Virus record (IMG/VR): IMGVR_UViG_3300046001_001163
Location: 1 to 59,881 of that record
Origin: a virus
Taxonomy: Duplodnaviria > Caudoviricetes
DNA length: 59,881 bases
Strand: one strand, 5' to 3'
Below the pieces are notes generated by a model, which saw nothing but the letters and a program-made list of their open reading frames with translations, searched no databases and had not been told where the DNA came from. Every line of letters starts with the position of its first letter. The stretch's first letter is position 1. Below are positions 1 to 8,759 of the stretch, piece by piece. Both the position numbers and the translations under genes were made by a program.

Positions 1-197
1 CCGACTACTAGTAATAACTTCCATCCACCTTTAGCTTCAGATAAAGTCTTACTTATTTCTCTAATAGCGTCCTTTATTTCTTCCATGTCTTTAGTCATTT
101 TGTCCATGTCCGTTTGAAGGTGTCTTATATCTGCGCTATGAGTAGCAAGCTCTCTTACTGTTTGCATAGCTGGGTCATCTTCTCTACGATGCTCCAT
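1..197 (-). CDS. Hypothetical protein, 3' end outside the window; coiled coil followed by the start of a hydrophobic segment
   Basis: Read by hand: ATG at 197, MEHRREDDPAMQTVRELATHSADIRHLQTDMDKMTKDMEEIKDAIREISKTLSEAKGGWKLLLVV..., open to the window edge. Confidence 0.6.
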   Translation of the reverse strand, partial: MEHRREDDPAMQTVRELATHSADIRHLQTDMDKMTKDMEEIKDAIREISKTLSEAKGGWKLLLVV

Positions 198-200
198 GAC

Positions 201-503
201 TTAGCCATATACTACAGTTACACCCAAAGGTGCTACAGTTCCGGGGACATAAAACATACCACTATTAAATAATATACCTTGTCCGGGCATTAGTATACTG
301 CTTAAGTTAGAGTTTGTGCCTGTGTCTAGAGTTAACAGAATTGGGCCTGTAGCAGAACCATCTCTAAATGTAACAGTACCTGCACCAACCCCACCAGCAA
401 TAACAACACTCTTCATACGATATCGACCTGATACCATCAACACACCACCTGATGCTACAGAAGCACTGGAGTGAGCCGATTTGACGTCTGTTTGCATAGC
501 CAT
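201..503 (-). CDS. Small virion-associated hypothetical protein
   Basis: 100 aa, rich in G/V/T; AGGAG SD; lies in the head gene cluster. Confidence 0.55.
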   Translation of the reverse strand: MAMQTDVKSAHSSASVASGGVLMVSGRYRMKSVVIAGGVGAGTVTFRDGSATGPILLTLDTGTNSNLSSILMPGQGILFNSGMFYVPGTVAPLGVTVVYG

Positions 504-596
504 AATTAATCTCCTAAATGTGTAAAGTTAAGGGCGGGTTTATACATTCTCGTTTAAGGCTAAGGTCGATCAACTCTAGCCCCCTTAGATTAATTA

Positions 597-1085
597 TTAA
601 GCGTCAAACGTAGTTGAACGATCATCAGGTTGTGCATAAGTTAAAGTCACAACAACAGAACCAGCAGTAGGTTGGCCTACAGAAGTAATAGTAGTAACAA
701 TAGCAGAACAAGCTGATTCGCCAGTAATAGCACTAGATACGTCTAAAGTAGTTGATTGCATAGCAAGAAGCTGTGCAGCAGTGAACGTAGGAGTAATTCT
801 ACCAGCGGCGGCTTTAGTATTAACACCAGAAGCGTATTCAGTACCACCTGCAGTTTTACCTACAGACAGTGTAGCAGAAGTAGCTGAGTCAAATACAGTT
901 AAGACATCAACAACAATATTAAGTAACTGACAACCAGAAGGTAAGTAGTTAGTAACAGTTGAAGTTAAAGTGGTGTTGAAAGGAACAGTTTGAATTTGTT
1001 TTAAAACAGTAGTGCCAGTGTTTTTGTATTGATTGTACTTGATAGTACCTGATTTGACTGGACCTGAAAATGTAGTACGTGACAT
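597..1085 (-). CDS. Putative capsid decoration/minor structural protein
   Basis: Start moved to ATG 1085 (MSRTTFSGPVKSG), which follows AAGGA; Thr/Ser-rich beta-type composition; downstream of the major capsid gene. Confidence 0.55.
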   Translation of the reverse strand: MSRTTFSGPVKSGTIKYNQYKNTGTTVLKQIQTVPFNTTLTSTVTNYLPSGCQLLNIVVDVLTVFDSATSATLSVGKTAGGTEYASGVNTKAAAGRITPTFTAAQLLAMQSTTLDVSSAITGESACSAIVTTITSVGQPTAGSVVVTLTYAQPDDRSTTFDA

Positions 1086-1170
1086 ATTAGTTTCCTTCAT
1101 AGAAAGTATAAGCTTAGTAGTCTTCTATGCGTCTGCCGGGGCAGTCTACTAAGCCGGATATTCCCGGTAT
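1086..1170 (-). promoter_or_regulatory. Structured (pseudoknotted) 5' leader of the 597-1085 gene
   Basis: Minus strand: GGCUUAGUAG/CUACUAAGCU stem enclosing a CUGC-CCCG-GCAG hairpin and CAUAGAAG, which can pair with UUUCUAUG directly before the AAGGA SD. Confidence 0.55.
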
Positions 1171-1194
1171 TAGGGTACTTATACTACGGATTTA

Positions 1195-1773
1195 TTATTC
1201 GTGCAAGTTTATTTTATTTGATTTTTTGCTATTTTCTTCACGAGTTATAACTGCTAAGTTCCAAGGCACATGAAGGCCGCTAACAAGCTCGCCACGAAGC
1301 GGCACAATATGATCTACAGCATAGGGTACTCCAGTTACTTTACTTACAAGCATGGCATCTAAATAGAACTGTTTAATTTCTGTCTTATGTTCTTGAGTAA
1401 GCCATTTAGGTGTAGCTTGTTTGTGCTTGGTTCTGCGGTGTTTATCATTGGCTAACACTAGTTCAGGATTGGCTTTCTTCCATGTTTTTCTATACTTTGT
1501 AATATCTTCAGGACTTCTACTTAAAGCCCTTAATTTTACAACTTCTTTATTATTCTCATAGTATTTCTTACCTGCTTTTTTACTAGCTTCCGATTTTGGC
1601 AATAACGCACGTTTAGCATTAGTTTCTTCCCATTCTATTTTTAAACAATCCATGCAAGTGCCTTTAGTTTTACGCAGTGCTATATGCCCATGCTTACAGG
1701 GTACGCCTGTAAAATAATGAGTTGCTTTGGTTTCTTGCGCTTCTTTACGAGTGGTTGGGTATTCACTGTACAT
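1195..1773 (-). CDS. Free-standing HNH endonuclease
   Basis: C-terminal VDHIVPL...GLHVPWNL...ENSKKSN HNH motif; N-terminal CxxxH...CxxC. Confidence 0.85.
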   Translation of the reverse strand: MYSEYPTTRKEAQETKATHYFTGVPCKHGHIALRKTKGTCMDCLKIEWEETNAKRALLPKSEASKKAGKKYYENNKEVVKLRALSRSPEDITKYRKTWKKANPELVLANDKHRRTKHKQATPKWLTQEHKTEIKQFYLDAMLVSKVTGVPYAVDHIVPLRGELVSGLHVPWNLAVITREENSKKSNKINLHE

Positions 1774-1805
1774 TATATTCTCCTGTGGGTTTCGTTACAG
1801 GTAAT

Positions 1806-1833
1806 ATTATACAGATGTTTTTAAAAATAGCAA
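1806..1833 (-). promoter_or_regulatory. sigma70-like promoter for the HNH gene
   Basis: TTGCTA-16 bp-TATAAT on the minus strand, just after the capsid terminator. Confidence 0.5.
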
Positions 1834-1837
1834 ACAT

Positions 1838-1863
1838 AAAAAAGGCCCACCGAAGTGAGCCTT
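1838..1863 (-). terminator. Rho-independent terminator after the major capsid gene
   Basis: AAGGCTCAC-TTCG-GTGGGCCTT followed by a T tract. Confidence 0.85.
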
Positions 1864-1886
1864 AGTTTAGTCAGAGCCCTCTACTA

Positions 1887-2795
1887 TCAAGCGCCGGCAG
1901 AACCGTACATACTCAAGGGATCACTCCAACCGAAGCTGTAACGCTCGCGGCTGCGGTACCTTACATTTCCGGTGTCGAAATCTCCACTCATGTCATTAGT
2001 GATAGGAGCACGAACAAAATGCTTCATACCATTAGGTACATCAGTAGTTAAGAACCACCCATTGCTATCAGTCAAGAAATGGTTAATAGCATAGCCTTGT
2101 GGAATAGAACCGTTGTTTTTCAATGCGTTTAAGTCATTGTCAGCAGTTCCTACACGTTGTTCAGTTTCCAACAAGCGAGTTGCAACGAATTGCAATGCAG
2201 GTGGAACGATCAGCTTTTTAGGTTTAGCAGCAATCAACAAGCCACGCTCATCAGTCCATGCAGCGATTTGGATAACAGCCGCTTCTAAAGAAGTTTCGTT
2301 TAAATCAGCAGGAGTAGAAGGAATGTTGCTGTTAGTAGCGCCATTAACTAAAGGGTGAGCAGATGAGAACAACGCAACGCCGTCACCACCAACATAAGCT
2401 GCAGAGAAACCGTTGTTTAAAACAGCAGCACCTTTAACTTGTTTGGTGTAAGACATAGCACGAGCCAAACCTTTAGTATAACGAGCAGACAAAGAGTCAT
2501 ACAAGTTATCTTCAATAGCTTCTTCAGTTAAAGAAAAACCTAAAGCAATAGTTTCGTGGTTGTAGCGAGCAGTCCAAGCTTCTTGAGCATTGTCATAACT
2601 AATGGCTGAGCCTTCGTTTTTGACAGGTGCTGCTGAGAAACCAGACAATTTTGTTTCTTCTTCAAATGAACGTTCTGATGATTCAGTTTCATAAATTTCT
2701 TTATGTTCTTCACCGTAACGAGCATATTCTAAACCGAAAAGAGCGTTAAGACCCGGAAGCAACTCTTTCAGTAATTGTGCGCGTGAAATAGCCAT
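1887..2795 (-). CDS. Major capsid protein
   Basis: 302 aa, MAISRAQLLKELLPGLNALFGLEY... with a PKKLIVPPAL motif typical of this phage capsid family; strong SD; followed by a terminator; downstream of the scaffold gene. Confidence 0.85.
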   Translation of the reverse strand: MAISRAQLLKELLPGLNALFGLEYARYGEEHKEIYETESSERSFEEETKLSGFSAAPVKNEGSAISYDNAQEAWTARYNHETIALGFSLTEEAIEDNLYDSLSARYTKGLARAMSYTKQVKGAAVLNNGFSAAYVGGDGVALFSSAHPLVNGATNSNIPSTPADLNETSLEAAVIQIAAWTDERGLLIAAKPKKLIVPPALQFVATRLLETEQRVGTADNDLNALKNNGSIPQGYAINHFLTDSNGWFLTTDVPNGMKHFVRAPITNDMSGDFDTGNVRYRSRERYSFGWSDPLSMYGSAGA

Positions 2796-2806
2796 TATTA
2801 AACTCC

Positions 2807-3634
2807 TTAAGCAGCAGTTGCGTTGTAGTAACTTGAAACGCCAAAGTTAAGCTTTACCAATACTTCAGTGTATTGAGTAATAACGATAACAGCGGCAGCA
2901 GGGATTGTAACTTGTGATGCTAAGTTTAAGGCGATAGTAGTACCACCAACAGCAACAGCAGTTGTTACAAATGAGCCTGTTTCTACAATTTGACCATTAG
3001 CTGCAACAAATGCAACGTCAGAGCCAGCAAGAATTGCTACAGGACTAGCAGGGATAGTAATGTTAGTAGTAGTAGTTGAAGTACTAGGAACACTAACTGA
3101 TACAGCTGTTTCAGGAACTACGTCTAATACACGTAATGGAAGAGCAGCAGTAGTAGCAGGAGCGCCAGCAGCAACAACAGCCAATACAGCATTAGTAGAG
3201 TTACCAGCAGCAATGTTACCAGCCGCAGTATCAATCATAGCCATATTCTGACCAATCATAGCTTTGCTAGTAGCACCAACAACAGTAGTACCTGAACAAA
3301 CAACAGCTTTAAATACAGCATCAGGATCGTCACTAACGATAGCAACAGCATCGCCAGCAAGAGTTCCAGTAGGCCAGTACTGTGAAAACAACTTTTGTTT
3401 AGTGGTTGGGTTAGTATAAGAACAACCTAAGAATACACCAACAACTGCACCAGTAGTGTTAACAACTGCACGTACAATAGAACCTCTAGCTAAAGTAACA
3501 GCGTCACCATAGAAGATGTTAGCCGCATATCCGTATTGGATAGGGTATTCACGAGTAGAGCCAGCGAAAACCTGACCTCCAATCAAACTTACGGGTTTCA
3601 GACCGTATGGGGCACTTACAACAGGGTAAGCCAT
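2807..3634 (-). CDS. Putative capsid decoration/cement protein
   Basis: 275 aa, rich in A/V/T; immediately upstream of the major capsid gene; GGAGG SD. Confidence 0.55.
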   Translation of the reverse strand: MAYPVVSAPYGLKPVSLIGGQVFAGSTREYPIQYGYAANIFYGDAVTLARGSIVRAVVNTTGAVVGVFLGCSYTNPTTKQKLFSQYWPTGTLAGDAVAIVSDDPDAVFKAVVCSGTTVVGATSKAMIGQNMAMIDTAAGNIAAGNSTNAVLAVVAAGAPATTAALPLRVLDVVPETAVSVSVPSTSTTTTNITIPASPVAILAGSDVAFVAANGQIVETGSFVTTAVAVGGTTIALNLASQVTIPAAAVIVITQYTEVLVKLNFGVSSYYNATAA

Positions 3635-3659
3635 ATTAAACCTCCAAAATTAAAATTAA

Positions 3660-4106
3660 CTATTGTCTACCAAATGATGTTGTAGATTTTCGCTCATTAA
3701 AGAGTGGCATTCTAGGATCACTTTGGCGCATTAAATTATTATCTACTGCTTCTGTTTGAGCCTGAGTTTGTTTATTGAAATGCTCATTACGCTGTTCAAT
3801 AAATTCTGTAGGGGTCTTACATAGCAATAAACCACCAATCTCTATGTTGTCTCTAAAACGACTAGTAGGGTCGATTAACAGTTGCATTTGCGGTTGTTCC
3901 GACACATTAACAGGTTCCCAGCCTTCTCTCAGTTTTGCTGAAAGGTTACGTGGGTCAGCTGCATTTAATGTTGACGTTCTAATCCATCTGTACGCATAGC
4001 CCGGTTGTTTATCCGGTTCTGGTAGAAGTTCAGCTGGTGCCCACTGCTTAGGACGGGCTGAAGTATCACGCGTTGTTACATCTCTTTGTATTCTGTTATC
4101 AGCCAT
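3660..4106 (-). CDS. Hypothetical head-module protein
   Basis: 148 aa with YRWIR...EGWEPV...GGLLLCK; lies between the scaffold and capsid genes. Confidence 0.6.
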   Translation of the reverse strand: MADNRIQRDVTTRDTSARPKQWAPAELLPEPDKQPGYAYRWIRTSTLNAADPRNLSAKLREGWEPVNVSEQPQMQLLIDPTSRFRDNIEIGGLLLCKTPTEFIEQRNEHFNKQTQAQTEAVDNNLMRQSDPRMPLFNERKSTTSFGRQ

Positions 4107-4107
4107 C

Positions 4108-5058
4108 TTAGGCCTCCAATTTGGTTAGTTCACGGGCGTATTGTTCATTAGTTAGTCCAAATTTCTTGGCTAATGCAACTTGAGTCTTGCTGAGTGACAC
4201 CTTTTTAGGGGCTGTGCTTCTCTTTGCAGACGCTACTACCGTGCTAAGTTTTGATGTACGTTGGGCTTTAGGCTCATCGTTTGAATCGCTAAATTCTTCT
4301 GGGAATCTGCGTTGTACTTCTTGGTCGATACGTTTGTAATATTCATCGCTTCCAACGAACTTATCCCCGTAAGTGTCTACAAGGTCTTCGTGTATGCCTA
4401 CAGCGAATCTACTCATGACTTTCTTAGTTGGGTCAACATACCACGGATTTTCGGCTACCCATTCCGCTGCCTTCGGGTCTTGCTGTACAGCGCGTTGCTG
4501 TTTTTGTAGTAATTGTGCACCTGTATGGGCGTTTTGTGCAGTAGGCCTGAAGTTTTGAGCTTTGTCAAGCTTATTTGTCGCTTTCATCAATTCTTCTTGT
4601 GCTTCGATGATTGCATCGGTATTTCCGTAGTCATAAGCTTCCTTATAATTACGTTTAGCCTTCTCCATTTCTAACTCAGCAGAGGATTGATAAGTGCTTA
4701 TTAACTCCTTTTCTCCTGATTGAAGTAAAGATTTAAGATGATGATTCTCATCCAGTATTTTTTGCGCTACAGCTAGAGCTTCTTCTTGCTCACGATAGGC
4801 TTCTTCTTTTAGCCTACGTTCATCGTGCCACGCTTTTTTATACTGTTTAAACTTAGTTTGTACCTTGCCAGAATAGTCATCGGACTCATCAGCAGTTTCT
4901 AACTCATCTACTATATCTTTAGGTAATGGTGGTCTAGCGTTTCTATCAGCTACGGGTGTATCATCTTCTATTTCAATTTCAATCTCATCATTATCTATTT
5001 CTACATTCCCACCAGCTTCATCAGGGAACTCATAATCATCTGCTTCATACTTAGCCAT
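4108..5058 (-). CDS. Putative capsid scaffolding protein
   Basis: Acidic N-terminus, coiled coil, C-terminal helix (LSKTQVALAKKFGLTNEQYA); position between portal and capsid genes. Confidence 0.65.
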   Translation of the reverse strand: MAKYEADDYEFPDEAGGNVEIDNDEIEIEIEDDTPVADRNARPPLPKDIVDELETADESDDYSGKVQTKFKQYKKAWHDERRLKEEAYREQEEALAVAQKILDENHHLKSLLQSGEKELISTYQSSAELEMEKAKRNYKEAYDYGNTDAIIEAQEELMKATNKLDKAQNFRPTAQNAHTGAQLLQKQQRAVQQDPKAAEWVAENPWYVDPTKKVMSRFAVGIHEDLVDTYGDKFVGSDEYYKRIDQEVQRRFPEEFSDSNDEPKAQRTSKLSTVVASAKRSTAPKKVSLSKTQVALAKKFGLTNEQYARELTKLEA

Positions 5059-5069
5059 TTTATTTTCCT

Positions 5070-5486
5070 TTAAACTCTGGAGATACCGCGAGGATCAAGA
5101 ACAATACCCTCAACACTATCATCATTAATCATGCGCATTTCTGTACCATGTATCTTCATACGAGTACCTGCGTTTGGTCTTACAAGGACAAAATCCCCAA
5201 CCTTGCACCAAGGTCCAGAAGGGAAACGCTCTTTGTCATTGTAACAATCAGGACCCATAGCCACAACAAACAGCACAGTAGCCAGAAGACCTTCATGCCG
5301 CAGCGTTTCATCAGCTTTAAGAATGCCACTTTCATATTCTTTCTCCACTTCAGGTAGTGCGCATAGTATACGATACCCTGTTGGTGTAGGCAGTTGAGTC
5401 GCCTTTTCTTCATTAGTAGCTGAGAAGTCTATAGACCCCACAACTTGAGGATTGTTTGGGTTAGACCCAATTAAGATTTTACTCAT
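5070..5486 (-). CDS. groES: GroES-like co-chaperonin (Cpn10)
   Basis: PTGYRIL...ESGIL...VVAMGP...KVGDFVL...AGT...MINDDSVEGIV matches the Cpn10 pattern. Confidence 0.85.
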   Translation of the reverse strand: MSKILIGSNPNNPQVVGSIDFSATNEEKATQLPTPTGYRILCALPEVEKEYESGILKADETLRHEGLLATVLFVVAMGPDCYNDKERFPSGPWCKVGDFVLVRPNAGTRMKIHGTEMRMINDDSVEGIVLDPRGISRV

Positions 5487-5674
5487 TCGTCTTCAAACTC
5501 CAGTTTCTTAGTTAGTACTTCTATGGCGCTTCGTGCCTGATCTAAGCCTTGAATTTGCCCACATATGTATTTATATGCGGCGTAATCTTCAGCCCGACCA
5601 GATGCTAACGCTTGTGTTAATAACGATATTCTGTCATCAATTTGTTTAAATAGAATCTCCGCTTCTCTATCCAT
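5483..5674 (-). CDS. Hypothetical protein
   Basis: 63 aa; its stop overlaps the groES start (ATGA). Confidence 0.65.
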   Translation of the reverse strand: MDREAEILFKQIDDRISLLTQALASGRAEDYAAYKYICGQIQGLDQARSAIEVLTKKLEFEDE

Positions 5675-5726
5675 TATTTAGTTACTCTTATAATAATCTC
5701 TTCGTGTATTTTATATCCAATACAGT

Positions 5727-5760
5727 ATAAAATAAAACCTAGCACCCCTACGAGTGCTAG
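5727..5760 (-). terminator. Probable terminator after the portal gene
   Basis: CTAGCAC-8 nt-GTGCTAG followed by GTTTTATTTT on the minus strand. Confidence 0.55.
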
Positions 5761-5807
5761 TAGCTTAATAGGTAATAGCACCAATTCTACAAAAATAGTT
5801 CCTGTCA

Positions 5808-8759
5808 TTATTTAGTTCCTTCAACAAGTTCACCTGTAGGTAGTACTAAATGTGTTCCTTTTTTCTCCTGATTAACAAAGTATTCACTTAATTTTTCAGG
5901 TGATTTATTTTTTAAGTTGTGCTCAGATGGGTGAAAGTAATATCGACCTTCCTCTCCTTTTTGCCATTTACCACCTTGTGCATCAGCGTTAGAGTATTTA
6001 CTTTGTTCTGAAAAAGTAGGGTGGTTAGGTAGCTTATAAGTATCTGGATAATGATCTTCTTCCCCTGCACGAGGTTTTATCTTTCCACTTTTAACAGCAG
6101 CTTTATACCCTTCCATATCATAGTCAGAGTGAATTACCCCACCCTCTTTAAAACCTTCAGGCTTTTTTCCACCTACCTCTCCTCCTTTAGTTTGAGCTGT
6201 TCGTTGTGCTTGTCTCTCAGCTTGTTGGTGTTGCCTTTCAGCTAAAAACTTAGCATGATCTTGTTGTTGATTACTTTGGCCTCTTAAATGCTCACGTTCA
6301 CTTTCTTTCATAGCTACATCTATACCCAGTTTTGCAGCTAACTGATCTTGCTTAGCAGTTATTTGAGCTTGAGTATCTTGCAACTTAGCATTGATTTGTG
6401 CACCAGCAGATTGTTGTTGAGCACCAATACGTTCACGATCAACTTGTATCTTCATCGCTTCCAACTGAGCATCAGACTGATCTTTAGCTACTTTACGTTG
6501 TAAGTCTTGAGCTTTAAGTTGCAGCTCTTGTTGTTGCATTTGTATCAACGGGTCTTGAGCTTGTTGCTGAGCTTGTTGCTGTTGAGCTTGTTGTTGCCCT
6601 TGCTGTAACAACTGTTGTGCAGCTTGAGCTGCCATTTGAGATATTTGAACTTCCATATCATCAGGAATTGTTACTTGATTGTCAGATTCATCTTCACCAT
6701 AAGTAGGTATGTTCATACCCATAGCTTGCTCAATCTGTTTTCTATACTCATATCCTAAGTGTTCATTTATATGTGCACTCATAGCAGCTTGCAGTGCTTG
6801 CATAGCCTGTGGATTTTGGCCCATAGATTGTTGAAGCACCTGTTGTATTTCAGGAGATTGCATTGCAGATGTATGTACAGCAATGTGAGCTTGATGATCT
6901 TGATACAAGAACGCCTTAACAGGTTTATTTTTGAGGATGTTCTGATTCTCTGTAACTGGGTCACGGGGTTTCATATCATCTTCCATGGGTACTAACTTTT
7001 GGTAATTAGGAATACCTAACACTTCCAGCATTTGTCTATGTAAAACAGGTAAGTTATATAGCTGTGGTGCGCCTTGTGCTAGTTGTAGGGCTGCCTGATA
7101 CTGGACGACTCTCTGTGCCATTGTGGAGGCATTAGGGTCTGATACAGGAAGTACGTATACCAAATCATAATCAGCTTTCTTAGCGCGTCTGCTACCTTCT
7201 GTAGGGTCATAATCGTATTCATCAGGGGTATAGTCTCTTATAATATTACGTAGTAAGATAAACTCTTGCTTCATCGAGTAGTGTATACGCGACTGTACTG
7301 CACTCATTACTTTAAGCGTTCTCTCGAGTACAGCGAGTGTTGTACCAACAGGACTATTAGAGGACATATCAGAGACAGCAAGATCAGCAGCCCCAGCAAA
7401 ACGGCGACCTTCATCGACTATACTCCCTAGCAAAGTTAATAATGTTTGACTTGGTTCTTTGTACGGCAGTGGCATAAAGTTATCACGCATTACACCTGAT
7501 GGCACATCTACGTCTCTCCACTCACCCGGAGCAATCGGAGTATCATCACCCTTAACCCTTAGTCCTCTAGTTTTAAAGCCCCCCGGAAGATTACTGAGAG
7601 TGCCCGCATCAACCAGCTGGCGAAGGATTGAAGTACTAGACTTGGCGAAAGCACCAATAAGATGAATAAGCCCAAAACAGTAAAAGCCAAAACCCGGCAC
7701 ATAACCATAATGAACGAAGTGATTGCGTTTTTTAGAAGATTCATCATCAGGGTCCCAATTTCTACGAATTGATAGGATTGTGTTTGTGCCTTTTTCGATA
7801 GTAACTACGTACGGCAACGCTATATCAGTTTGCTTTCCTTCATGATCTTCGTGCTCAAAACCTTCAAGATTAATCTCAACATGCATTTCTAACAGTTTAA
7901 ACCGATCATCCGTTGACGCTCTGAAACCAAGCTTATCAGCTATCTTCTTCTCAATATCGTCCATAGTATTGGAAGGTTCACCCAAATCTACATCTCTATA
8001 AAAACCTTCATACTGTAGTCTGCGTATTTCATTCTCAGTCTTCCGCATTATGTGAGTTACACGTTCTGCACTCTGTAAGTCAGCTGCACCATACGGTACA
8101 ACGATATCTTCAGCAGGTACGTACATAGCAACTTGACGGCCTAAGTACGGGTCATAATATACTTTCTTAAAGGCGTTACCAGCCAATCCTAGGCCCCATA
8201 ACATGCGCTCATGCTCTGGTCTGTATTCAGTCATCACATCGGTAAGCTGATAGTTCATGTCGTCTTGAACACGCTGTGCAGCTTCTTTCTTCTCTTCAGT
8301 CTCTTTACCAATGATCTGTGTTTTAACTGGACCAGACGCAGGAAACGTTGCAGTAATAGTCTCTGCTTGGAACTTAATAACAGCCTCAGTTAACAGTGGG
8401 TGATACACACCACATGCACCTTCCCAAGGTTCTGAGCGGTCTTCCATCTTAAGACCTAGTAACTCAAGCCCATCAACATAAGTTTGAACCCAATCTTTCC
8501 TAGCGCTTACATCAGACTCGAAGTCATTAATAAGATCAGAAGCAAGCGATTGTAGAGCCGACTCATCCATCTCTTCAGCAAGATTCATGCTGAACTTTTC
8601 TTCATCAACTTCTTTTTGAATCTTAAGAATCTCTTGTTCACCTAAGCTAATCGTTACTGACTCAGGGTCTTCAATCTCAATCTCTAACGGTTCTTGATCT
8701 TCTTCTATAGGTATAGCATCTAAGCCCATCGGGGCTGGGTTCACACTTTTGTCTATCAT
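5808..8759 (-). CDS. Portal protein (P22-like, long Q-rich barrel helix) with an extra C-terminal domain
   Basis: 983 aa directly after TerL; GNAFKKVYYD and YGYVPGFGFYCFGLIH portal-type motifs; long Q-rich coiled coil. Confidence 0.85.
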   Translation of the reverse strand: MIDKSVNPAPMGLDAIPIEEDQEPLEIEIEDPESVTISLGEQEILKIQKEVDEEKFSMNLAEEMDESALQSLASDLINDFESDVSARKDWVQTYVDGLELLGLKMEDRSEPWEGACGVYHPLLTEAVIKFQAETITATFPASGPVKTQIIGKETEEKKEAAQRVQDDMNYQLTDVMTEYRPEHERMLWGLGLAGNAFKKVYYDPYLGRQVAMYVPAEDIVVPYGAADLQSAERVTHIMRKTENEIRRLQYEGFYRDVDLGEPSNTMDDIEKKIADKLGFRASTDDRFKLLEMHVEINLEGFEHEDHEGKQTDIALPYVVTIEKGTNTILSIRRNWDPDDESSKKRNHFVHYGYVPGFGFYCFGLIHLIGAFAKSSTSILRQLVDAGTLSNLPGGFKTRGLRVKGDDTPIAPGEWRDVDVPSGVMRDNFMPLPYKEPSQTLLTLLGSIVDEGRRFAGAADLAVSDMSSNSPVGTTLAVLERTLKVMSAVQSRIHYSMKQEFILLRNIIRDYTPDEYDYDPTEGSRRAKKADYDLVYVLPVSDPNASTMAQRVVQYQAALQLAQGAPQLYNLPVLHRQMLEVLGIPNYQKLVPMEDDMKPRDPVTENQNILKNKPVKAFLYQDHQAHIAVHTSAMQSPEIQQVLQQSMGQNPQAMQALQAAMSAHINEHLGYEYRKQIEQAMGMNIPTYGEDESDNQVTIPDDMEVQISQMAAQAAQQLLQQGQQQAQQQQAQQQAQDPLIQMQQQELQLKAQDLQRKVAKDQSDAQLEAMKIQVDRERIGAQQQSAGAQINAKLQDTQAQITAKQDQLAAKLGIDVAMKESEREHLRGQSNQQQDHAKFLAERQHQQAERQAQRTAQTKGGEVGGKKPEGFKEGGVIHSDYDMEGYKAAVKSGKIKPRAGEEDHYPDTYKLPNHPTFSEQSKYSNADAQGGKWQKGEEGRYYFHPSEHNLKNKSPEKLSEYFVNQEKKGTHLVLPTGELVEGTK

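Follow-up and report, generated by a model that had tools for sequence, protein, structure and literature searches.

A covarying leader RNA with two predicted pseudoknots adjoins the ribosome-binding site of a candidate capsid decoration gene in freshwater phages

In the gene neighborhood that follows the major capsid gene of the virus record IMGVR_UViG_3300046001_001163 (Duplodnaviria; Caudoviricetes), we identified an mRNA leader that is almost certainly a selected RNA structure. Comparison with its relatives predicts a three-helix junction composed of P1 (10 bp), P2 (3 bp), and PK (8 bp) and locked by two pseudoknots, namely, PK itself and a second one, PK0, which ties the extreme 5′ tail to the loop of P2. 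The motif is found in many freshwater phages, where it is abundant, and we infer that it most likely governs the protection and translation of its gene's message.

The window, by which we mean the whole stretch of DNA that was analyzed, comprises 59,881 bases (positions 1 to 59,881 of the record, the completeness of which was judged to be 94%). The minus-strand genes run from the portal gene through small open reading frames (ORFs), a scaffold-like gene, and further ORFs to the major capsid gene, which is followed in turn by a terminator-like hairpin, an HNH gene, the leader, and a gene of 162 codons. In Pfam, the capsid protein matched Phage_capsid_4 (PF25209; 2.3e-11) and Mu-like gpT (PF10124; E value of 1.7e-8). 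The neighborhood is laid out as follows.

2795-1887, minus strand: major capsid gene (PHROG major head protein, 6.2e-20)
1842-1863, minus strand: strong intrinsic-terminator-like hairpin after the major capsid gene, found by a terminator scan
1195-1773, minus strand: HNH endonuclease gene, between the capsid gene terminator and the putative leader promoter (context, outside the RNA)
1171-1083, minus strand: leader of the gene after the major capsid gene
597-1085, minus strand: downstream gene, 162 amino acids, jelly-roll cement/decoration-like product with a conserved N-terminal arm

Hairpins equivalent to the one at 1842-1863 are also present in relatives of this phage, and the HNH gene is missing from three of them (L007-L009). 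A same-strand homologue of the capsid gene lies upstream of the leader in 77 of 85 loci, at a distance of 11 to 1869 nt; of the other 8 loci, which have no such homologue upstream, 6 have less than 1 kb of upstream sequence. The gap between capsid gene and leader grows in steps, holding no insert, a small ORF, an HNH gene, or other ORFs. There is one copy of the leader per genome, and in the window a covariance model found it once (102.4 bits; the next match scored 14.2 bits). The isolate relatives are only distant ones: HTVC023P-type pelagiphages, roseophages CRP-901/902, and Planktothrix and Synechococcus phages.

Within and just upstream of the leader, we distinguish the following elements, in which all pairings are predicted. 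Every element that an earlier note on this DNA had listed, from the window sequence, is present where it was placed on the minus strand.

1201-1206, minus strand: -35-like hexamer TTGCAC, overlapping the final codons of the inserted HNH gene
1178-1183, minus strand: -10-like hexamer TATAAG, separated from the -35-like hexamer by 17 nt
1163-1167, minus strand: 5′ tail CCGGG, the 5′ strand of PK0 (with 1136-1140) or, alternatively, of the local hairpin P0
1167-1154, minus strand: local hairpin P0 (CCGG..CCGG)
1154-1157, minus strand: 3′ strand of P0 (CCGG), of which G1155 and G1154 double as bases 1 and 2 of P1
G1155-G1146 with C1120-U1111, minus strand: outer stem P1, 10 bp, the first being G.U
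1146-1155, minus strand: 5′ strand of P1, GGCUUAGUAG
C1144-G1142 with C1135-G1133, minus strand: inner hairpin P2 (CUG/CAG), 3 bp closing the loop CCCCGG (1141-1136)
1130-1132, minus strand: junction ACG; the other two junction bases are A1145 and A1121, and each junction reads AG-A-C
C1129-G1122 with U1105-G1098, minus strand: pseudoknot PK, 8 bp, the last being G.U
1122-1129, minus strand: 5′ strand of PK, CAUAGAAG
1111-1120, minus strand: 3′ strand of P1, CUACUAAGCU
1098-1105, minus strand: 3′ strand of PK, UUUCUAUG, preceded by a 5-nt linker (1110-1106)
1093-1097, minus strand: Shine-Dalgarno (SD) sequence AAGGA, directly 3′ of PK with no spacer
1085-1083, minus strand: start codon ATG

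A single sequence says little about such a fold. The minimum free energy structure of the window sequence recovered P1 with z scores of -1.79 (131-nt slice) and -1.78 (89-nt slice), and for each slice 11 of 200 shuffled sequences folded equally well. The fold in this one sequence is indistinguishable from chance, and it is comparison that settles whether it is real. Our comparison rests on an alignment (A2) of 86 distinct leaders from phage contigs, 27 of which were obtained by protein-based retrieval and 59 by pattern search. It was reduced from 103 unique longer slices, with the omission of identical slices, leaders with fewer than 36 nt of upstream sequence or with no ATG within 20 nt, a leader with a 1-nt insertion in the 5′ strand of PK (L083), and a candidate taken up below (L128). 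The pattern search fixed 27 letters, so the invariance of these letters in the 59 rows is by construction; the 27 protein-retrieved rows show no variation at these letters either.

Across the 86 leaders, 98.5% of the 1,804 cells that make up P1, P2, and PK were paired, versus 28 to 44% when the partners were slid by 1 to 3 columns, and none of 500 column shuffles reached the observed paired fraction or covariation score. Compensatory changes (i.e., on both sides of the pair) were found at 10 of the 21 pairs. P1 was 97.9% paired, with both-side changes at 7 of its 10 pairs, and P2 was 100% paired, with such changes at 2 of 3 (UA in 76 leaders and AU in 10; GC in 83 and AU in 1). PK was 98.7% paired; its first four pairs are invariant, and its fifth, neither side of which was fixed by the search pattern, occurs as all four Watson-Crick types (CG in 43 leaders, GC in 25, AU in 11, and UA in 7). 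Covariation in homologous leaders thus extends to both features drawn in the earlier note, the 10-bp outer stem and the pseudoknot of 8 bp that abuts the SD sequence. The inner hairpin, which had been drawn with 4 bp, keeps three of them; the candidate fourth pair is ambiguous (UG in 43 leaders, CG in 38, and other combinations in 5), and its G also takes part in PK0. The junction letters (AGAC, GAC, and GAC) are invariant in A2, although pattern fixed in 59 of the 86 rows, and are invariant too in the 27 protein-retrieved rows.

The 3′ edge of the motif is just as constant, in that the 3′ strand of PK is set against the SD sequence without a spacer in 86 of 86 leaders. PK adjoins the SD sequence, but the latter lies outside it. 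The spacer between the SD sequence and the ATG varies in length among leaders, and the frame, relative to the gene, of an upstream ATG within the 3′ strand of PK is not conserved. RNAalifold independently recovered P0, P1, and P2. It also proposed a small, weak, invariant hairpin, CUUU/GAAG (alignment columns 91-94 with 99-102), which competes with PK and touches the SD sequence.

The strand on which this structure forms can be read from its wobble pairs. G.U was counted in 61 leaders at pair 38-84 (the foot of P1) and in all 86 at pair 73-92 (the end of PK); since these would be A.C on the other strand, the sense RNA is indicated as the folding strand. The same pairs bear on whether the stretch might be conserved as DNA, either as a recombination linker or for the binding of a protein. 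The upstream spacer is indeed an insertion hot spot, and the motif precedes swappable gene bodies; nonetheless, with compensatory changes in four helices and G.U pairs that are strand specific, we find conservation at the DNA level barely credible.

The fourth of these helices, PK0, emerged from the 5′ tail, which covaries with the loop of P2 to give a second, G+C-rich pseudoknot of 5 bp. The tail/loop combinations include CCGGG/CCCGG, CGGGG/CCCCG, CCAGG/CCUGG, CCGAG/CUCGG, CUAGG/CCUAG, and CUGGG/CCCAG. A contiguous Watson-Crick complement between loop and tail, sought in each leader's own 22 upstream nucleotides, is at least 4 letters long in 86 of 86 leaders and at least 5 letters long in 83 of 86, whereas complements of at least 5 letters were found for 0.9% of shuffled upstream segments and for 760 of 4,862 loops swapped between classes. 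The five pairs were counted as CG 84; CG 65, GC 14, and UA 7; GC 71, AU 14, and CG 1; GC 81 and AU 5; and GC 83 and AU 1, so that pairs 2 to 4 covary. The counts for PK0 and P0 come from a custom script that took the best loop complement as the register, which makes the paired fraction lean toward PK0 but leaves the variety of pair types unaffected.

The same tail has a local partner. In 82 of the 86 leaders, the 5′ segment folds into P0 at -1 kcal/mol or better (median, -5.5), and P0 is absent in exactly the four others (L147, L164, L211, and L214). The small CCGG hairpin at 1154-1167 had been described in the earlier note as an element lying upstream of the structure; it is present, but it is part of the motif rather than separate from it, its tail being the strand that covaries with the loop. 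P1 opens with the last two G residues of P0 (pairs 38-84 and 39-83). Since the tail and these two residues are each used twice, P0 and the combination of PK0 with a full P1 are mutually exclusive, and conservation holds for each. By a rough energy estimate for the window sequence, the nested form containing P0 lies at -16.5 kcal/mol; the alternative was estimated at -11.7 for P1 (10 bp) plus P2 (3 bp), with a further -10.8 for the PK0 duplex and -8.2 for the PK duplex before loop penalties.

Covariation alone cannot separate pairing within a molecule from pairing between molecules, and it might be supposed that the tail of one leader pairs with the loop of another, so that leaders dimerize or form rings in the manner of the loops of the phi29 packaging RNA. 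A 6-nt loop closed by only 3 bp would, moreover, probably be strained by intramolecular pairing. Against this, the leader is part of an mRNA with an SD sequence and a start codon, and both the local competitor P0 and its overlap with P1 fit a fold made within one molecule. Pairing between molecules strikes us as extremely improbable.

The tail also lies close to where transcription is predicted to begin. In 63 of 85 leaders, a strict sigma-70-like box (TTGNNN-N16-18-TANNN[TG]) lies 4 to 12 nt ahead of the tail, in line with the earlier note's guess of a promoter at this site. In all 63 strict cases, the -10-like box lies 8 to 11 nt before the tail, and the -35-like hexamer is TTGCAA in 30, TTGCAC in 23, TTGCAT in 4, TTGCTT in 3, and one of three other hexamers, once each, in the rest; most of the leaders outside these 63 carry the -10-like box only. 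If the box is active as a promoter, as its sequence suggests, the transcript would be expected to start 0 to 4 nt before the tail, and in the window at about 1170-1171. In the four leaders that lack P0, the start lies some 25 nt beyond the stop codon of the capsid gene, and neither terminator nor promoter is present, and yet they keep PK0, P1, P2, and PK.

Contigs from four metatranscriptome runs (lake water or freshwater), 90 to 99% alike, cover the leader and gene. One RNA-library contig bridges 1107-1287, which takes in the leader and the 3′ end of the HNH gene, and two others, from two studies, stop at 1156 and 1158, although contigs cannot show transcript ends. Nor do such contigs demonstrate transcription or allow starts, strand, or level to be read, and DNA may be present in the libraries. 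The stretch 1328-1891 is uncovered by RNA-library contigs, a gap to which we attach no meaning.

These observations bear on two further explanations. One is that the leader serves RNA processing, either by cleaving itself as a ribozyme or by being cut by RNase III or RNase E, and so detaches the message from read-through of the capsid or HNH gene. It does sit between genes, the four promoterless leaders must be cotranscribed with the capsid gene, an RNA-library contig bridges 1107-1287, and the double-pseudoknot topology recalls that of some ribozymes. However, no Rfam ribozyme family matched at an E value of ≤10, the strand order (tail, P1, P2 loop, PK, P1′, and PK′) is by eye unlike the HDV-like order, and most leaders have a promoter box of their own; we therefore regard a processing element as quite improbable. 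We think it very improbable, too, that the motif acts on transcription, whether as a promoter-proximal RNA that modifies RNA polymerase or as an attenuator. The put RNA of phage HK022, which brings about antitermination, is an example of the former, and the motif does begin a few nucleotides from the predicted start, just after a strong terminator. But its 3′ strand is fixed against the SD sequence with no spacer in every one of the 86 leaders, four leaders are promoterless, and P1 is AU rich with no U run after it, the terminator scan having found no terminator there.

How widely the motif occurs was examined by retrieving relatives of the downstream protein from IMG/VR. The single protein led to 41 loci, and a 9-sequence profile led to 215 relatives, 80 of which we retained. 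Among AT-rich relatives whose upstream sequence was long enough, all carry this leader, down to a protein identity of about 56%, and the leader core is 79 to 89% identical where the proteins are 56 to 68% identical. A pattern made of only unpaired or invariant letters matched at least 120 further IMG/VR stretches; it replaced a stricter pattern with a fixed loop length, which had matched only 6. One candidate from this viral scan was dropped (L128; 25.4 bits, P1 missing). When prokaryotes were scanned with the pattern, at one genome per species, three stretches matched, of which only L254, lying on a 4.2-kb contig from an uncultured bin, was confirmed by the covariance model (95.3 bits); the other two (L253 and L255) are chance matches according to that model. 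No cultured phage with the motif was found when the leader was compared by blastn with 50,697 isolate phage records, the only match being a 22-nt chance one (E value of 3).

The more distant, G+C-rich relatives lack the leader and carry a spacer of 15 to 25 nt or a plain G+C hairpin instead. In 24 such sources, 3 of them isolate relatives and the other 21 G+C-rich loci, the covariance model gave no matches. We did consider one G+C-rich leader in the same position as a related fold, the strand order being alike by eye, but its 7 distinct variants show no covariation and one of them breaks a pair; we have not counted it as support.

Searches of the 162-amino-acid downstream protein against Pfam, PHROGs, and PDB sequences returned nothing. 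One GenBank relative is annotated as a “minor capsid protein.” An AF2 model built from a 37-sequence alignment (pLDDT, 74.8; pTM, 0.70) predicts a beta sandwich with a disordered N-terminal arm. The top Foldseek rows, all weak (best E value, 4.8e-3), were the cement protein of Helicobacter pylori phages KHP40/KHP30 and the capsid of Ralstonia phage GP4. With VIA-align, the GP4 capsid chain 8h89_J scored a Z of 9.9 (root mean square deviation of 2.9; 123 aligned), KHP30 scored 9.7, and the KHP40 cement protein scored 8.6, but a tail/baseplate chain of a tail complex scored 9.6 and the coat protein of a plant satellite virus scored 8.0, and a shared protein fold shows no function. Judging from the model, the protein is likely, but not proven, to be a jelly-roll capsid cement or decoration protein.

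The proteins that follow the leader have little in common beyond their first residues. Of 99 such proteins of at least 40 amino acids, 95 share an N-terminal arm (M-x-x-T-T-F-S-G-P-like); the bodies are otherwise unrelated, falling from residue 21 on into 10 blastp clusters (90 proteins of at least 100 amino acids), and the profile of the window's protein matches 48 of the 99. Synonymous differences in the arm codons indicate that the arm is conserved as protein. By these sequence comparisons, the leader is independent of the protein body.

A protein-operated translational operator would be one way to account for so constant a leader. The cement protein (via its N-terminal arm), the capsid protein, or another late or host protein would bind the junction and either stabilize or melt PK beside the SD sequence, tuning synthesis to assembly. 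T4 gene 32 and regA and the coat protein operators of the RNA phages are precedents for regulation of this type. The invariance of the junction letters and of the first four PK pairs is what an operator would be expected to show, as are the association with a single gene, the occurrence of one leader copy per genome, and the bistable pairing of the tail, and leader and arm do occur together in 95 of 99 cases. On the other hand, 4 of the 99 downstream proteins keep the leader without the arm, the bodies belong to 10 unrelated clusters, and the modeled jelly roll has no known RNA-binding feature. Among 11 downstream proteins drawn from different clusters, Pfam identified no nucleic-acid-binding family. 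On balance, we consider an operator of this kind unlikely.

A small-molecule riboswitch, in which the three-way junction would serve as the aptamer and a ligand would set the equilibrium between P0 and PK0, or that of PK, and thereby ribosome access, fits the architecture, in which the junction is conserved, the stems covary, one pseudoknot stops at the SD sequence, and the 5′ tail has alternative pairings. Rfam 15 (4,227 models, including preQ1, SAM-II/V, ZTP, fluoride, twister, pistol, hatchet, hammerhead, HDV-like, and xrRNA) was scanned with cmscan under permissive filters over 1-6000 and 1060-1230, and no family was found at the site, even at an E value of ≤10, apart from two chance matches to long noncoding RNAs (12.7 and 8.7 bits; E values of 6.5 and 7.1). 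Moreover, the sole associated gene is a virion accessory gene rather than one for metabolism or transport, and the SD sequence takes part in no conserved, covarying alternative helix. A riboswitch in this sense seems to us improbable. The earlier note was right to take the element for a leader RNA located in cis and possibly unnamed, and this RNA is conserved and covaries, but its description as “riboswitch-like” found no support: no ligand, no anti-SD pairing, and no link to a metabolic gene was found, and the SD sequence lies outside the pseudoknot. That the leader sets structural protein stoichiometry, as was also proposed there, is conjecture. Three features had gone unnoticed in that note, namely, PK0, the exclusivity of P0 and PK0, and the fact that the downstream genes share only the N-terminal arm.

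The reading that we tentatively favor, and consider quite possible if short of probable, is that the finished fold is a constitutive, built-in expression cassette, in which the 5′ end is tucked away and the ribosome site displayed. While transcription is at an early stage, the local hairpin P0 would hold the tail and guard the nascent 5′ end. Completion of P1 would then take two bases from the foot of P0, so that P0 would be displaced and the tail freed to form PK0. The finished knot may hide the 5′ end and so protect the message from 5′-end-dependent decay, and it may also remove the AU-rich single strand of the leader from the reach of decay enzymes. The SD sequence and start codon would stay unpaired where a rigid stack of helices ends, and translation of an abundant capsid protein would thereby be insulated from a variable upstream region (i.e., the terminator and the inserted homing endonuclease genes). 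The folding order and every functional effect in this scheme are presumptive.

Several observations sit uneasily with a constitutive cassette. Mutually exclusive tail pairings that are both conserved are equally expected of a regulated switch. The invariant junction letters exceed the needs of a mere stabilizer, although this is partly a matter of ascertainment (59 of 86 rows being pattern fixed). PK does not cover the SD sequence, so any effect on ribosome binding is putative, and the weak, invariant hairpin that touches the SD sequence could compete with PK. Since the four promoterless leaders keep PK0, protection of the 5′ end cannot be the whole story. Finally, the G+C-rich relatives do without the motif (0 of 24 sources).

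The main rival to the constitutive cassette is a switch operated by a protein or a ligand. We give a real, if minority, chance to the idea that the leader represents a new class of RNA switch, in which some ligand, or a phage or host protein, would pick between P0 and PK0 and so gate ribosome entry through the knotted junction. If this were the case, the leader would be the first regulatory RNA that times or doses a capsid decoration protein, and it would do so from a mobile cassette (promoter, leader, and N-terminal anchor) placed before at least 10 unrelated protein bodies.

Structured cis-acting RNAs in the late or structural operons of phages are almost uncharted, and the leader is useful for asking how phages dose their capsid accessory proteins. 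It is also well suited to structure determination, for it is abundant, four helices covary cleanly, the topology is unusual and interleaved, and the 5′ end can pair in either of two exclusive ways. A portable cassette for expression and anchoring (promoter, leader, and N-terminal arm) that precedes interchangeable decoration domains would matter to phage capsid display and to the annotation of the many “hypothetical” genes of freshwater viromes.

By position, the nearest known element is Mu-gpT-DE (RF03012), likewise a conserved structured element that follows a Mu-gpT-like major head gene and ends at the next SD sequence and start codon. The leader shares this placement, coming after the gpT-like capsid gene at 1887-2795 and ending at an SD sequence, with the HNH gene inserted between. 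Mu-gpT-DE, however, is a single hairpin (53 model positions) with an SD-start tail, whereas the leader is a double pseudoknot, and the Mu-gpT-DE covariance model gave no match at 1083-1171 at an E value of ≤10. Its only match in the window, at 1771-1802 before the HNH gene, is at chance level (15.4 bits, against a gathering score of 49).

The leader of T4 gene 32 has one H-type pseudoknot far from the SD sequence, followed by an unstructured tract that is coated by the single-stranded-DNA-binding protein. Like the leader described here, it is a phage mRNA 5′ leader that begins with a pseudoknot, and it acts on translation of the next gene; unlike it, ours has two pseudoknots, a three-way junction ending at the SD sequence, and a jelly-roll capsid accessory protein as its predicted product. 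The preQ1-II, SAM-II/V, fluoride, and ZTP riboswitches also have a compact leader pseudoknot near the ribosome site, with a conserved junction and covarying stems. They differ in that our leader matches none of them in Rfam, has its SD sequence outside the pseudoknot, and precedes a virion protein gene. Where riboswitches sequester the SD sequence, it lies inside a pseudoknot or a covarying anti-SD helix, which is not so in the leader, and the sole proposed helix that touches its SD sequence (CUUU/GAAG) is invariant and weak and does not covary.

Stabilizers such as the 5′ untranslated region of E. coli ompA pair the extreme 5′ end, as the leader is predicted to do, and likewise place structure near the ribosome site of an abundant message, but these are simple hairpins with no sequence conservation across taxa, while the leader is doubly knotted and its junction is invariant. 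The exoribonuclease-resistant RNAs (xrRNAs) of flaviviruses share with it a three-way junction whose 5′ end and 3′ flank are tied back by pseudoknots. The partners, however, are swapped, the 5′ end of the leader pairing with the apical loop and its 3′ flank with a junction strand, and no Rfam match was found. The likeness is one of topology.

The autoregulatory pseudoknot of the T4 gene 32 leader is mentioned in a passage of PMC10690425, a catalog of over ten thousand candidate viral RNAs that are listed in its supplements. Our literature searches, to which that supplementary list was external, returned no description of the motif, and it may be an unnamed entry in the catalog. By the features compared, the leader was assigned to none of the T4 gene 32 leaders, pseudoknot riboswitches, 5′ stabilizers, and xrRNAs, and it is a new and well-supported RNA family of a known general kind, the structured cis-acting leader.

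The spacer between the terminator of the capsid gene and the promoter of the leader is an insertion hot spot, and the gap from capsid gene to leader ranges from 11 to 1869 nt among 77 loci. The features concerned, all on the minus strand of the window, are as follows.

1195-1841, minus: variable spacer, seen by comparison with loci L002, L004, L007-L009 and L010
1833-1806, minus: promoter-like site of the HNH gene itself, TTGCTA-16-TATAAT, read from the sequence
1771-1802, minus: match to Mu-gpT-DE (RF03012), 15.4 bits against a gathering score of 49, E 9.4, chance-level

In the window the spacer is occupied by an HNH endonuclease gene, and in other loci by a different ORF; both run into the conserved -35 region, and both end with the C-terminal residues KINLHE. 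Locus L007 lacks the HNH gene, yet retains its last ~12 codons. The segment matched to Mu-gpT-DE is a short hairpin followed by AGGAGA..AUG, lying directly 5′ of the HNH start codon.

Downstream of the leader (genes of loci L129-L239, e.g., L129:1919-2515, L133:583-1050 and L147:659-1345), 95 of the 99 proteins carry a conserved N-terminal arm of the type M-x-x-T-T-F-S-G-P-V, fused to at least 10 mutually unrelated bodies of 110 to 230 aa each, none of which was assigned to a Pfam family. The arm looks like a common capsid anchor bearing interchangeable decoration domains. Separately, the portal-like ORF (window 5808-8759, minus strand, 983 aa) is unusually long; it includes a low-complexity stretch rich in glutamine and alanine, and has an additional region at its C terminus.

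Within the leader itself, the three strands that join its helices (P1, P2 and the pseudoknot helix, PK) all read AG-A-C, so that AGAC occurs three times. Positions are from A2, an alignment of 86 distinct leaders, 59 of them from a pattern search whose fixed letters included the junctions; in the other 27, retrieved by protein, these letters are invariant as well.

A2 columns 46-49, window 1147-1144, minus: AGAC, P1 to P2
A2 columns 61-64, window 1134-1131, minus: AGAC, P2 to PK
A2 columns 72-75, window 1123-1120, minus: AGAC, PK to P1

One possibility for this threefold repeat is a pseudo-threefold junction; another is a recognition element that is repeated.

Other sequences occupy this position elsewhere.

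L243 (GenBank MW202675.1) 2422-2492: leader of a G+C-rich lineage in the same position; also in L093-L096, L246-L252, L256 and L257
L244 (Planktothrix phage Pag-Yong1, OL906435.1) 2396-2500: 104-nt spacer separating the capsid gene from a "minor capsid protein" gene, a homologue of the gene served by the window's leader

The G+C-rich leader looks unrelated; judged by eye, its strands interleave in the same order as in the window. GCCCAG, directly after the first strand of a 7-bp stem (UGACCGC/GCGGUCA), pairs with the 5′ tail CUGGGC; the partner of UUGCAC is GUGCAA, two bases of which also belong to the SD AAGGAG. Except for one broken pair in L247, the paired strands are identical among the seven distinct variants, which therefore offer no covariation test of the proposed pairings. 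Two G+C hairpins lie in the Planktothrix phage spacer. The second has a loop, CCGUCUCC, that by eye could pair with its complement GGAGACGG, within which the SD lies, and this would be another candidate pseudoknot at the ribosome site of a homologous gene.

The contents of the spacer upstream of the leader look like a presence/absence polymorphism of homing endonucleases.
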